64,000 bases of DNA from a candidate division TM6 bacterium GW2011_GWE2_36_25 (GTDB taxonomy: Bacteria; Babelota; Babeliae; Babelales; UBA12409), in NCBI GenBank assembly GCA_000991575.1, contig LBRU01000001.1, forward strand, positions 84,722-148,721, written 5' to 3'. Under the pieces are notes generated by a model. That model did not search any database and was not told the DNA's origin. It saw only the letters and a program-made list of their open reading frames with translations. The translations under genes were made by a program, and so were the position numbers. Position 1 is the first letter of the stretch; the number at the start of each line of letters is the position of its first letter. Positions 45,048-56,871 of this stretch are shown one piece after another.

Positions 45048-48000
45048 ATGAATAAAAATATGGGTAAACGTTCTTCATGGTTATTCATTTTAATTATTTT
45101 TTTTATCAAAAATTTTTCTGCTGTAGTTACAAGTCCCCTTGAATCAGTGGCTGATTTTAAAAATACAGGATTATTTGATGGGCAATTGTCTTCGGCCAAA
45201 GTTTCAGGAGATATTTCTGGTAATGGTATAAAAAATTTTGTTGCTGCAACGACTTCTTTGGGTGAATTAAGGGACATTAAAATTGTTGGCAATGTTAATG
45301 CTGCAAAGGGTGCTTATACGATTGGACTTAAACTTAATGGCCTTGTTCAGCCAAGTAAAATTTTTAGTGACAAAAAGCAGTTTGATGCTCTCTTTTCCTT
45401 TAAAGATCCCGTTATTCTTATTTCGAATGTTGATGGAGATGAAAAGCTCTTTGGTTTGGCGGTTGCAAAGGGAATATCCTGTGTAAGTGTTCTTGAGCCT
45501 CAGGGTAATGAATTTGGCAAAATTTTATCAGACCTAAAGTTATTTCAGCTAACTATTCAAACAGATTTTTCATTTGCAACATGGAAAATGCCTTTTAATG
45601 GTGTAGAGGACTTGTGTTTAAAAAGTATATTAGAGCCCTATGTTACGAAATCTCGCCTGGAAAATGTTGCTGAGCTTAAGAATAAGGTTGAAAGAACGTG
45701 CATAAACAATCCCGTTGCAGAATTAATTTTTATTAAGGAAGATATTGGTTTGCGCATTGCGGGTAAATCATCAGATGGTGCAAAAAATTTGTTTTTAGTT
45801 AATCCCCTTGAAGATAATTCTATGCAAGTAAATGTGGCATCACGTTATGATATTCCAGCAAAACTTTCAATGGTGGCGCCAAGGCTGAAGCCATTTGATA
45901 ATGTTCTTCAACCAAGAAATTTAACGCTTGTCTATCGAAGTGGTGACATTCTCAAGGAAAAAGAAAAAGAGGGTATTGCGAGTGAAGAAGAACTTATTTA
46001 TGTGGATAAAGCGCCTCAATTTACTGATGATGTTCAATTTTTAGATTTTAATTATTACAAAAATGGAATAACAACCGTTTGCGAAGGAGTTGTGGGGGGT
46101 CCATTAAAAAATATTTTTTCTGATTCATTTATAATTAAAATTTATGATCAGCCGGGAATTATTAATAAAAAACAAGAAGATTTCTTTATTTATTTTACTA
46201 ACTTTTCGAGTAAAAAACTTTGTCTTGCTGATATTTTGAAACAGGTAAAAGGAGCTGGCAAGTTTCAGGAAGCTTTAAAAATGCTCAGTAATGCAGAAAT
46301 TTGTTTTACCTATAAAGGTATTGCAGTTAATCAAGCACGTTCGATCGAACAAGAAACAGGGGAGCTCTTTATCGTTATATTGGGCGAGATAGATTTGTGG
46401 GGGGCCAAACAAGATGTTGAAGTATGGTTAACGTACAGTGACGGTTTGTCTGTAACTTTCGCTTTTCGTGGAAAAGGAGAGTTTAAGTTAAGTAATATTA
46501 ATTCAAAACTTAAGTCCGTGGATGGTTTAATGAGTATGCATGATGCAATTTTAATTGTGGCGACCGATCTTAAAGGTCCCGTTCTTTTACCAATTCCACT
46601 TAAAGAAGAAGGAATTATTGTTGGCGGAAATCTTTCATTTAGTGGCTTTTTAAAAACCACTTTTGATCTCTTGAAAATGACCTCTCCTTATGGTCACGTT
46701 ACTCTTCCATTATCTTTGATTGAGGGAGGTATTGGTGTTGGTGCTTATCAGGCATATGAACCTCCATTAGTTTTGATGGAAAAGATTAAAGTTTATTCAA
46801 CTGATTTTAATGTGAAGTTAGAAATGGGAATGCCTGAATTTGAATTGAAGTTGGCATCTGATGTAGATTTGGCAGGAAAGATTTTCAAAACAATTTTTGT
46901 AGGATCAATTGCACCACTTACTTTTTCATTAGGGGGAAGATTGGAAGGTAATATTTTAAATAGTCCTGGAGGCTTTCCTGTTACGGTAAATGATCCGACG
47001 CTTATTCTTAATTTTGCTGGTGGACTGATTTCTGGTTTAGGTGGTGGTGGGTCATTCAAGGTTGGTGATGAGGATTTATCATTTTTCCTGAATGTTAATG
47101 CTGCTGATCCTAAAAAATTAGCGGTAGCGGGTTATACTGATAAATTATGTTTTCCTGATCTTATGATATTGTGGCAGAAATTGGCTCAAAAAGCTGTTCC
47201 TGGTTTGCAAATCCCTGGTTTGGGGTGTCTCCATGATTCATATCTTGTTTTTGCAAAAAGTGATTATGCAACCGGAGGATTACCGTTGCCAGAAAAACTA
47301 CAAAAAACGTTATTTGTGAAATATGGCCTTCCTAAAGGTATTTCATTTGATGGGAAAGGGGATTTTTTGGGCATGAAAGTTCATGCAAATGGAAATGTTT
47401 CAGATATGGGAATTCGTTTTATTGCTGAAACAACTCCTTTGAACATCGAAAATCTTTTTGTGTTAACATCGATCACTGATACATTAGTTGGTCCACATAT
47501 GGAAGAGCGTTTAGATTTTTCTGAGCAGATAGTTGATCTTGATGGTAAATTGCAGATTGGTAAGTCTCCGGCGATTTTATCAGGTCAATCAAAGGTTCAC
47601 ATTGATCCTCATGGTGGATTTTTTGATGTGAAGGGGAAGATGGGCATTTTTGATGTTGATGTTATGGGTACGGCTGACTTCTTATTTGATAAATCAAAAA
47701 TAAGCAAAACAATTCTTAATGGTAAAATAACCAGCGGATTGGACAATCTGGTAAACAAAGCCCATCAAAAAGTACAGGCGGTTGTAGAAGGGTGGAAAAA
47801 TTCTGCAGGTTCTATGGTAAGCAGTATTAATGATAGCATTTCTGAGATTAATAATGCGTGCAATAAGGTTCCATTGTTTTCATGTTCAACAGTTTTAAAA
47901 CCATTTAAGAAAGTTGTTGATGATATCTCTCTCGTTAATAATGCGCTGAGTAATTCTTTTGAAAAATTAACAGCACCCTTTATTTTTAAGGAAGCTTCTT

Positions 48001-48446
48001 TTACGGTAGCGATTACTGCGTTTAATTTTGTAATTTCAGAGTTGCAGTTAAAGCTTGAAATTTTTGGAAATATTCAAACGATAAAGATTGCCAACTTTGA
48101 TGTTAATAATTCTGTTGCGGCTATTGAGCAGATAGTTAATGCGATAATTCAGCAACTAAAACCGCAAAATATGGATCAAACATTGAGTGCAGGAAAAAAT
48201 CTGGTTGCATCAACGCCATCCATTGTTCAACAGATTTTAGCATCTGTCGCAACCGGCCTTACATCACAGGCATTAGAAAAGATAGGAAGTATTGCTGAGG
48301 CGGCAGGCGTTGGATCTGTAATAGATGTGACGAAAGAGATTGGTGGTAAAGTTGGCAACTTGGCTCCATTAGATGATTTGAAAAAACTTGTTCCAGGCAC
48401 TATGGTGGATAAATTGAATCTTGGTAATTTGGGCTTGGTGACGTAA
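45048..48446 (+). CDS. 1132-aa secreted/anchored protein of unknown function (giant paralogue A)
   Basis: N-terminal hydrophobic leader WLFILIIFFIKNFSAVV. Collinear similarity to the 50445-53111 product over several blocks. No known motif recognised. Confidence 0.75.
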   Translation: MNKNMGKRSSWLFILIIFFIKNFSAVVTSPLESVADFKNTGLFDGQLSSAKVSGDISGNGIKNFVAATTSLGELRDIKIVGNVNAAKGAYTIGLKLNGLVQPSKIFSDKKQFDALFSFKDPVILISNVDGDEKLFGLAVAKGISCVSVLEPQGNEFGKILSDLKLFQLTIQTDFSFATWKMPFNGVEDLCLKSILEPYVTKSRLENVAELKNKVERTCINNPVAELIFIKEDIGLRIAGKSSDGAKNLFLVNPLEDNSMQVNVASRYDIPAKLSMVAPRLKPFDNVLQPRNLTLVYRSGDILKEKEKEGIASEEELIYVDKAPQFTDDVQFLDFNYYKNGITTVCEGVVGGPLKNIFSDSFIIKIYDQPGIINKKQEDFFIYFTNFSSKKLCLADILKQVKGAGKFQEALKMLSNAEICFTYKGIAVNQARSIEQETGELFIVILGEIDLWGAKQDVEVWLTYSDGLSVTFAFRGKGEFKLSNINSKLKSVDGLMSMHDAILIVATDLKGPVLLPIPLKEEGIIVGGNLSFSGFLKTTFDLLKMTSPYGHVTLPLSLIEGGIGVGAYQAYEPPLVLMEKIKVYSTDFNVKLEMGMPEFELKLASDVDLAGKIFKTIFVGSIAPLTFSLGGRLEGNILNSPGGFPVTVNDPTLILNFAGGLISGLGGGGSFKVGDEDLSFFLNVNAADPKKLAVAGYTDKLCFPDLMILWQKLAQKAVPGLQIPGLGCLHDSYLVFAKSDYATGGLPLPEKLQKTLFVKYGLPKGISFDGKGDFLGMKVHANGNVSDMGIRFIAETTPLNIENLFVLTSITDTLVGPHMEERLDFSEQIVDLDGKLQIGKSPAILSGQSKVHIDPHGGFFDVKGKMGIFDVDVMGTADFLFDKSKISKTILNGKITSGLDNLVNKAHQKVQAVVEGWKNSAGSMVSSINDSISEINNACNKVPLFSCSTVLKPFKKVVDDISLVNNALSNSFEKLTAPFIFKEASFTVAITAFNFVISELQLKLEIFGNIQTIKIANFDVNNSVAAIEQIVNAIIQQLKPQNMDQTLSAGKNLVASTPSIVQQILASVATGLTSQALEKIGSIAEAAGVGSVIDVTKEIGGKVGNLAPLDDLKKLVPGTMVDKLNLGNLGLVT

Positions 48447-55707: not shown

Positions 55708-56871
55708 ATGAAAAAATTTAGTATAATAATTTCTCTTTTTGCTTTTGGACAATTGCATGCAATGCGATTTACCCAAAAAGGTAAAATTCCGTTATTCGAT
55801 GAAAAAAATCCAGCATTGTGTAAATCAGTTAAAAGTATGCGTGATAAGGTTGTTGATGATTTTCAAAGACGAATAATATATCTGCTTAATGCCATGTCTG
55901 AAAATAACTTAGAAAGATCAGCAGTTAAACGGAAGCTTGATGAATTGGAAGGAGAGAAATATCACGAAGCCTGTGATTTTTTTGATGATTTAACGCAGCA
56001 GGAAAAACTTAACTGTGATGTAAATGATCTTGGGCGTATTAAGGCGTATTATAGAAGATTACAACTTAAACATCACCCAGATAAAGGTGGTGATGTTAAC
56101 GTGAGTGCCAAACTCAATGGAGCTTATAATATATTGGTTACCGCATTGAGAGAAAAAGATCGGATTCCACAATTAAAGGAAGAGGAGGTATCAAAAGAAA
56201 AGCTGGAGGGTAAACATCAAAAAGAAGGTCGTAATATTTTAGGGCAAGTAAGATTGGCATGGCCTTTTTTTGTCAGTAAATCAAGCGAAGAAATAAAAAA
56301 AATTATAGATTCTAATCGAAGAAAAAAGTTGCAGCAGATGATTGGTAAAAGTGTGGAGATGCCCCATTATACTGGCGGAGCTGATCCTAGCGCCTTCATT
56401 AAAAGATATAAAACTAAACAGCTTGCAACTGCGCTTGTAAAAATGAGACAAATAAGGGAGGTGACAGATTTTTTTCATACAAAAATTGATGAAATTATGA
56501 CTGAATGTAATGTCACAACGCCTGCTTTTTTTTCGCTTCCTTATAATGCTATTTTTCTTATAGATGATGAAAATCATCAGACGAGAGAGCTTTCAGTAGA
56601 TTTTTTTGAAAAGCTGCACGTTCTTATGCCAAACCTTGGGCAGATTATACTTATGTGCAAACTTGAAGAATTGCCAAAATCTATGAGTTTATTTAAAGGG
56701 TTGCGCGCGCTGATAGTTTCACACAATAATTTGAGAACATTGCCAATGTGGATAACTCAACTGCCTCATCTAAAGCTTCTTGATATTTCAGATAATCCAC
56801 TTGAGATGACTGAAGAGCTTCAAAAAATCATTACAGATCTTGAACAGAAAAATGTGCGTATTATTAAATGA
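55708..56871 (+). CDS. J-domain protein with C-terminal leucine-rich repeats and N-terminal signal peptide
   Basis: Signal MKKFSIIISLFAFGQLHA; J-domain YYRRLQLKHHPDKGGD (HPD motif); LRR LRALIVSHNNLRTLPMWITQLPHLKLLDISDNPL. Confidence 0.8.
   Translation: MKKFSIIISLFAFGQLHAMRFTQKGKIPLFDEKNPALCKSVKSMRDKVVDDFQRRIIYLLNAMSENNLERSAVKRKLDELEGEKYHEACDFFDDLTQQEKLNCDVNDLGRIKAYYRRLQLKHHPDKGGDVNVSAKLNGAYNILVTALREKDRIPQLKEEEVSKEKLEGKHQKEGRNILGQVRLAWPFFVSKSSEEIKKIIDSNRRKKLQQMIGKSVEMPHYTGGADPSAFIKRYKTKQLATALVKMRQIREVTDFFHTKIDEIMTECNVTTPAFFSLPYNAIFLIDDENHQTRELSVDFFEKLHVLMPNLGQIILMCKLEELPKSMSLFKGLRALIVSHNNLRTLPMWITQLPHLKLLDISDNPLEMTEELQKIITDLEQKNVRIIK

Follow-up and report, generated by a model that had tools for sequence, protein, structure and literature searches.

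A probable native hypervariable slot between galE and pfkB holding lineage-specific exported proteins in a candidate division TM6 bacterium

We describe the interval between galE and pfkB in candidate division TM6 bacterium GW2011_GWE2_36_25, which is probably an intracellular parasite with a reduced genome (~1 Mb, 36% GC). The interval lies in a stretch of 64 kb, here called the window, which is the whole of the DNA that was analysed (G000:C1:84722-148721 of a 1.07-Mb assembly in 17 contigs, ~36% GC). We propose, with good though incomplete confidence, that this interval is a native chromosomal hypervariable slot, similar to a plasticity zone, holding lineage-specific proteins with Sec-type export signals that probably face a host. 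Seven open reading frames (ORFs) on both strands occupy 45048-56871 (ORF listing of at least 80 amino acids), and the gaps of 14-243 nt between them leave no room for an additional gene. The same 21-23 kb was recovered at 99.99-100% identity in three other assemblies, one of them a groundwater metagenome, and the seven frames are intact and identical across the three. This population is present in groundwater samples SRR3309375 and SRR1658344.

The left conserved flank is galE (43889..44950, + strand), encoding a GalE-type NAD-dependent epimerase (Pfam Epimerase, E 5e-53) whose longest ORF has a hydrophobic N-terminal extension, and the right is pfkB (56921..58024, - strand), encoding a PfkB-family sugar kinase (Pfam PfkB, E 3e-42) and followed by Lon. 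The slot begins with G1132 (45048..48446, + strand), a predicted exported protein of 1132 aa (1128 aa by gene callers) with N-terminal beta-modules, a core at residues ~655-1039 and a Gly/Leu-rich tail. It converges on PLC452 (48496..49854, - strand), the large subunit of a split phosphodiesterase resembling phosphatidylinositol-specific phospholipase C (PI-PLC), which has its own signal peptide, a GLDKLG-rich N-domain of ~140 aa and a barrel running from LHLCHGGCG to the end. Between these convergent genes lies a GC-rich hairpin with T-runs on both strands (48453..48471), located by a consensus scan only, that looks like a bidirectional terminator. The small subunit, PLC112 (49869..50207, - strand), comprises a signal peptide and the first barrel strands with the motifs SHNAFSS and GVRALMYD. 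Then follow G888 (50445..53111, + strand), an 888-aa predicted exported paralogue of G1132 with its core at ~464-832; p276 (53261..54091, + strand; 272 aa by gene callers), an exported orphan with several Cys and no family match; cc417 (54209..55462, - strand), an exported orphan that is coiled-coil-like at ~22-270 and has a tail rich in Gly, Ser and Thr; and J-LRR388 (55705..56871, + strand), whose signal peptide is followed by a putative J-domain (residues ~100-160, including HPD) and, towards the C-terminus, by two or three leucine-rich repeats (LRRs; ~300-375).

In all seven ORFs a basic n-region comes first, then 10-15 hydrophobic residues and a cleavage motif of small residues, as in the leaders MKYILLCFLIIASIPCSLQA and MKKILSILLIIGMVAQAFA, each followed by D. 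Judged by a signal peptidase I criterion (positive charge in the n-region, 7-15 hydrophobic residues in the h-region and small ones at -3 and -1) together with inspection, all seven satisfy the permissive rules and five the strict ones. Searches of the seven proteins against Pfam, NCBIfam and PHROGs gave only sub-threshold J, LRR and coiled-coil matches. The neighbourhood to the left includes a GspC/secretin/PilM-GspL/secretin operon of a type II secretion system (T2SS) and a MoxR ATPase, 3-4 kb from the slot.

Comparison with relatives defines the slot as a site of replacement within a fixed frame. We retrieved and compared the regions that hold the PfkB and GalE orthologues of 12 relatives. 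Within the family the backbone moxR-p551-galE-slot-pfkB-lon is conserved: galE orthologues in G001-G007 are 54-67% identical and adjoin the slot, and pfkB orthologues, found in all family genomes, are 42-80% identical and adjoin lon. Flank proteins of the compared relatives are 54-86% identical to those of the window; giant ORFs in the slot match G888 and G1132 at only 21-23%. The distance from galE to pfkB is 12.0 kb in this genome and holds seven genes. In G002, of the same genus, it is 12.6 kb and holds one 3106-aa ORF and four small leader ORFs, while G001, also of this genus, has a 2172-aa ORF beside galE and then a contig break. Outside this genus, G006 has a 2772-aa ORF beside galE, again running to a contig break, G003 has a slot of 2 kb with three small leader ORFs, and G007, of the same genus as G003, has galE and pfkB adjacent, about 12 nt apart. 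Where a relative carries a giant, the slot is at least 10-13 kb long and holds one ORF of 2,172-3,106 aa.

No counterpart of the PLC genes, p276, cc417 or J-LRR388 was found in the slots of the compared relatives. Slot content is non-orthologous between genomes: genera, and even members of this genus, differ by replacement, expansion or loss of what lies between the flanks. The site again carries giant-family genes in four family genomes. The original prediction, made from the sequence alone, had recognised no core or housekeeping family among the seven genes; none of them is such a gene, and their distribution is accessory. Of the 151 genomes in the order, p276 and cc417 each occur in 1, the PLC in 26 and the giants in 15. 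Nor are the genes core envelope components of all relatives, as the adjacency of galE and pfkB in G007 shows. A fixed slot with species-level turnover of this kind can serve as a practical marker when the family's host-facing gene sets are compared. Two side observations concern L009, a contig from a 79%-identical relative. It stops 50 nt past its G1132 orthologue (13381-13431), a break consistent with variable or repeated sequence downstream. Over window 35308-48446, synonymous divergence (dS) from L009 is ~0.7 for galE and G1132 and 1.4-2.2 for six upstream genes, which may mean that the galE-G1132 segment was exchanged by recombination more recently, or may be saturation noise.

The slot lacks the marks of a mobile island. 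Neither it nor its edges encode an integrase, recombinase or transposase (ORFs of at least 80 aa; Pfam, NCBIfam and PHROGs), the whole 64-kb window contains no tRNA, and no pair of boundary repeats was found at the slot edges. The sole PHROGs match was that of the LRR region to a PHROG of unknown function, and no other phage family appeared. Scans of the slot for promoters, terminators, boundary repeats and Rfam families, the last without a match, returned nothing beyond the one hairpin. The slot has a GC content of 35.0%, at the 20th percentile (whole genome, 35.95%), and pooled codon usage lies at the 15th percentile of distance, closer to the genome mean than 85% of seven-gene runs. These native values argue for a native hypervariable slot and not an imported mobile island. 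The seven ORFs, the galE and PfkB flanks and the absence of integrase, tRNA or repeats had all been predicted and are confirmed, and the descriptions of individual genes (two giant paralogues, PLC pieces, a coiled-coil protein and a J-LRR protein) hold up. The idea of a dedicated, coherent island or arsenal does not: the genes have independent phyletic patterns, family members elsewhere stand in unrelated contexts, and the suggested check for compositional deviation found GC and codon usage native. At ~24 kb of the window the GC skew switches sign in the manner of an origin; the slot lies 21-33 kb from this putative origin.

We identify a phosphodiesterase barrel divided between two genes as one of two features that stand out in a locus of otherwise ordinary type for reduced intracellular bacteria; the giant family is the other. 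Precomputed Pfam assignments place PF26146 (PI-PLC_X) and PF26178 (Rv2075c_cat) on PLC452 and, weakly, PF26178 on PLC112; an older Pfam copy gave no match on either ORF, and a PDB sequence search with PLC452 returned nothing. Homologues occur in 26 of the 151 genomes of the order; apart from the window's own genome, no member of its family has one. Nine intact ones, each a single leader-bearing ORF of 301-495 aa, were aligned (BLASTP E 1e-26 to 2e-49): they cover PLC112 residues 5-80 and then pass straight on to PLC452 ~160-446 (homologue residues ~80-345 for the PLC452 part). All family motifs are kept, SHNA and GVRxxxxD on PLC112 and LCHG, E(N/D), WPT, NKR and YPNFIxxD on PLC452, so that the two conserved histidines, in SHNA and LCHG, sit on different chains. 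By analogy with bacterial PI-PLC, we assume that these histidines are catalytic. The barrel pieces are separated by a 30-residue PLC112 tail and its stop codon, a 14-nt spacer containing the ribosome-binding site (RBS) AAAGGA, a new leader and the ~140-aa GLDKLG-rich domain. Two intact homologues also carry insertions in the same loop.

The split recurs in two other organisms. Logan contigs L043 and L044 have the same two-ORF layout, with an upstream PLC112 homologue ending at the same place, a 9-33 nt spacer with an RBS, and then a 451- or 484-aa ORF with its own leader. Compared with PLC452, the corresponding proteins P0123 and P0124 are 49% identical in the PLC part and 46-54% in the N-domains; the layout recurs at about 49-55% identity. 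Selection maintains such a split, which is still intact in three lineages whose proteins have diverged by ~50%, and decay was rejected as an explanation on the same ground. The original prediction of two pieces of a PLC-like phosphodiesterase was right that the pieces are real, but they are more than pieces, being a conserved two-gene arrangement. Most likely, the two chains would assemble into one enzyme after export, each contributing one putative catalytic His. This two-gene, two-leader TIM-barrel phosphodiesterase offers a testable case of post-export enzyme assembly. A compositional similarity was observed in passing: the G1132 tail (48250-48446), the PLC452 N-domain (49370-49795) and the cc417 tail (54209-54700) share a Leu/Gly/Lys/Asp-rich flavour of GLxKLG type. 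A shared module among the three was considered and set aside, as BLAST E values of 0.01 to 8e-4 in a seven-sequence database were treated as compositional.

The giants define a family of their own. G1132 and G888 are paralogous (25% identity over 558 aa, BLASTP E 1e-40), with a shared core in which G1132 residues 390-1037 align with G888 208-822 and repeated N-terminal modules marked by the motif (L/V)CLxD(I/L). A k-mer homologue search with G1132 returned only itself and one 79%-identical relative, P0002, and neither Pfam nor NCBIfam gave a match for it. Against this close relative (P0002, on L009), identity is 79.5% and the ratio of nonsynonymous to synonymous divergence (dN/dS) is 0.16, which indicates a functional gene under purifying selection. 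A family profile built from the window proteins and three relatives recovered 120 representative clusters at E <=1e-3 among 1.84 billion proteins, with lengths of 184-3111 aa; N-modules, in varying number, accompany one core and often another, partial one. The cluster members are named only "hypothetical protein" in their sources. The protein family is present in 15 of the 151 genomes of the order. The window's own bacterial family, with eight genomes, accounts for seven of these, G007 being the one without it. When eleven members were compared with Pfam, one Big_5 was the only match above the curated cut-off, and sub-threshold matches included a weak Ank_2.

In a maximum-likelihood tree of the core, G888 groups with the stand-alone 856-917-aa proteins P0006, P0008 and P0010 (support 98/95), G1132 and P0002 form their own long branch, and the first and second cores of the giants form other groups. 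This placement in different subfamilies makes G1132 and G888 old paralogues; a recent tandem duplication and two halves of one broken giant were both dropped on this evidence. The G888-type genes for P0006 and P0008 stand in unrelated genomic contexts. Several cysteines are invariant in the family, which fits an extracytoplasmic protein. AlphaFold2 (AF2) modelling of full-length G888 from five sequences was weak (pLDDT 62, no fold match); that of the G888 core from 20 diverse sequences was confident (pLDDT 83.4, pTM 0.74) and predicts an antiparallel beta-meander of ~20 strands with an inserted helical hairpin of ~70 residues and a terminal helix. Foldseek searches with the G888 models found nothing at E <=1e-3 in PDB or BFVD, the best TM being ~0.2 (porins, TamB, VDAC and the ApoB100 beta-belt). 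Pfam gave no match to a type V autotransporter translocator (PF03797 or similar), and the C-termini are predicted to be helical. With ~120 clusters and a fold that is predicted confidently yet unmatched in PDB and BFVD, the family invites structural study.

In four relatives the giant gene is directly followed by one for a conserved exported coiled-coil protein of 304-404 aa with a Cys near each end and a C-terminal F-K/S-x-C-P (L013 11611-12624, L016 988-2031, L017 8937-9851 and L003 2783-3994), a possible dedicated partner of the giant. No homologue of this protein was detected in the window; cc417 and p276, tried as candidates, scored hhalign probabilities of <1%. A separate observation is that the only giant-family copy in G003 (G003:C12:42450-44267) lies away from the galE slot and has an in-frame TAA; it is probably a pseudogene.

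The remaining three genes are more isolated. p276 has no Pfam or NCBIfam family and no relative in the 150 other genomes of the order, and finds only itself among 5.8 billion proteins. cc417 likewise has no relative in those 150 genomes, and shows weak matches only, to coiled-coil segments of SMC, Rad50 and SF-assemblin. J-LRR388 carries HHPDKGGD in a J-like segment that matches Pfam DnaJ at E 2.9e-4 (21.3 bits against a cut-off of 27.8), HscB at E 3.5e-5 and Jac1 in PDB at E 1.8e-3. Its LRRs (residues 300-375) are of eukaryote/Leptospira type, matching LRR_8 at E 1.4e-5 (25.2 bits against a cut-off of 27) and LIC12759 in PDB at E 5e-18; NCBIfam Xop LRR effector matches cover the LRR part only and fall far below their cut-offs. 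The sole real orthologue, a 27%-identical ORF, lies where contig G002:C79 ends. Two independent ENA assemblies (L011 and L012) both end exactly at window 56474, inside the LRR-coding part of this gene, likely at a breakpoint of repeat or strain variation.

Among known systems, the closest analogue of the locus is the chlamydial plasticity zone, which has fixed flanks, species-specific content, large cytotoxin genes and phospholipase D (PLD) paralogues tied to host adaptation (PMC6740158). Both are chromosomal, non-mobile loci of a reduced-genome bacterium (intracellular in Chlamydia, probably so here) with fixed flanks, very large proteins and lipid phosphodiesterases. The chlamydial zone, in contrast, spans ~81 kb and is located around the terminus of replication, whereas the slot measures 0-13 kb and lies near the putative origin; no gene is homologous between them, PLD there corresponds to a PI-PLC-like enzyme here, and the type III secretion system there would be replaced here by the T2SS. 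The slot PLC has all family motifs in common with PI-PLC-like proteins (plant and fungal PLC X-domain proteins, bacterial PI-PLC) but differs in having its barrel on two genes with their own leaders, an extra domain of ~140 aa and putative catalytic His residues split between chains. The X and Y halves of eukaryotic PLC have been reconstituted when expressed separately; to our knowledge, no natural PLC split at this position has been described. J-LRR388, which combines a leader with eukaryote-type LRRs and an HPD-bearing, putative J-domain, recalls the eukaryote-like effectors of amoeba-associated bacteria (ankyrin, LRR and J-domain proteins of Legionella and Dependentiae); the Legionella effectors use Dot/Icm and have no Sec leaders. 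We know of no Dependentiae protein for which translocation into the host cytosol has been demonstrated. Leader-bearing repeat proteins are common in Dependentiae (PMC6561590). The giants resemble TamB/AsmA and ApoB-type open beta-sheet proteins in having a long antiparallel beta-meander within a giant protein, but differ from them in fold score (TM <=0.2, E >=6e-3), in lacking a Pfam match, and in their long helical hairpin and conserved cysteines.

We propose a model in which the slot proteins would cross the inner membrane via Sec, and at least some would then exit through the T2SS encoded 3-4 kb upstream and act at the cell surface or on a protist host. The two PLC chains could reassemble into one barrel after export and attack inositol-lipid or related phosphodiester head groups. 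The putative J-domain of J-LRR388 might engage host Hsp70 and its LRRs might bind a host protein. The giants may work at the cell surface or in membrane contact, their rapid turnover following changes in the host. The eukaryote-like LRR and PI-PLC domains and the putative J-domain fit host-facing proteins. The seven genes share export signals, accessory distribution and an address but no phyletic pattern, and nothing indicates a conserved multi-gene system. If the slot is what we propose, we consider actual delivery of its products to a host evenly balanced between yes and no. Such bacteria are known almost only from metagenomes, with host-interaction genes largely unannotated. A bolder combination of ideas is possible, though we regard it as rather doubtful: the PLC would be an obligate two-chain secreted enzyme that assembles only outside the cytoplasm, a safeguard keeping a membrane-damaging activity off until export, with the GLDKLG-rich domain serving in docking or targeting; the giants would form a new, order-specific fold class of exported open beta-sheet proteins; and the slot would swap host-specificity variants.

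Several considerations weigh against a host-facing hypervariable slot. Leaders were scored on the ~978 ORFs of the whole genome by crude strict and permissive rules rather than a trained predictor, and leader-like N-termini proved common: 25% by the strict rules and, by the permissive ones, 43% (with no further membrane helix) to 54%. This rate is consistent with the 44% signal-peptide coding sequences of Chromulinavorax destructans, a cultured member of the Dependentiae (PMC6561590). Under the permissive rules, 2-5 runs of at least seven leader ORFs were observed against 1.5-5.7 expected by permutation; the all-leader run is at chance level and not exceptional. The leaders predicted on all seven ORFs are present, but as a special feature of the locus they do not survive, and where ~40% of genes carry them, "every gene has a signal peptide" is no signal by itself. 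GalE-type ORFs with hydrophobic N-termini further make a leader weak evidence of secretion in this genome. We know of no route by which a T2SS substrate could enter the host cytosol, where the putative J-domain would need to act. Adjacency of the slot to the T2SS operon is conserved within the family, but giant-family members elsewhere occur without it, and a functional T2SS link therefore stays speculative. The giants could also be structural envelope proteins of the family and not host-directed. Finally, galE and pfkB were never neighbours outside the family among the 12 relatives in which they were located, and because this synteny stops at the family, either gain or loss may lie behind the differences at the slot.

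Three other explanations were weighed against the native slot. The seven genes could have arrived as one block on a horizontally acquired genomic island or mobile element, a view encouraged by the absent or tiny region in G007 and G003 and by a PLC that occurs in no other family genome but is scattered through the order, which could mean lateral acquisition of that gene pair. Yet GC and codon usage are typical of the genome, integrase, transposase, tRNA and flanking repeats are lacking, the slot in every other genus has different, distantly related content, and the seven genes follow seven phyletic patterns; we consider import as a block highly improbable. That there is no biological unity at all, only a chance run of unrelated leader genes, partly decaying, in a permissive stretch, would accord with leader runs of at least seven arising at the expected rate, with independent phyletic patterns and with p276 and cc417 being orphans without relatives, and it overlaps with the native-slot explanation in denying a single system. 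Chance nevertheless fits poorly with a site that is variable in every family genome and carries giants again in four, which is not random; nor does decay fit with a PLC split conserved in three lineages, with purifying selection on G1132 or with seven frames intact and identical in three assemblies. We judge this explanation to be quite unlikely.

The large proteins, and perhaps their neighbours, might instead be components of envelope biogenesis, as AsmA/TamB-like lipid carriers or outer-membrane structural proteins beside the T2SS, p551 and galE. Both AF2 models show a long antiparallel beta-meander, and TamB, the ApoB100 beta-belt and porins head the weak fold matches (E 6e-3 to 6e-2, TM <=0.2). 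The T2SS, p551 and galE neighbourhood is conserved in the family, and G1132 evolves under purifying selection. This genome has a canonical TamB at another place (PF04357, 89 bits, at C2:170106-170861), as do 8 of 10 relatives searched (a set that did not include G007), and the notion that the giants are this genome's TamB was dropped for that reason. The giant family is, moreover, missing from G007 and from 136 of the 151 genomes of the order, its copy number, length (850-3100 aa) and location vary freely, and neither the two window proteins nor the eleven members compared have a Pfam AsmA/TamB match, the fold scores not being significant. An envelope-biogenesis role is in our view unlikely, and we favour the native hypervariable slot.

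Two observations concern the left flank. The galE ORF has a hydrophobic segment of 15-30 residues before GxxGxxG (start 43889-43960), and its start overlaps the p551 stop. The same hydrophobic start is seen in galE orthologues of five relatives (L013 1155-, L014 925-, L015 930-, L016 -12036 and L017 999-); either the GalE-type enzyme may be membrane-tethered or exported, or the true start may lie further in. The adjoining p551 (window 42234-43889) has a leader, many Cys and a C-terminal GVSF, and matched no Pfam family. It is one of seven paralogues in the genome, the others including C1:21261-22859, C8:12919-14409 and C13:7694-15368, and a contig search of genomes with p551 returned only two loci. 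Kept beside galE throughout the family, p551 looks from its sequence like a family-specific outer-membrane barrel or porin.

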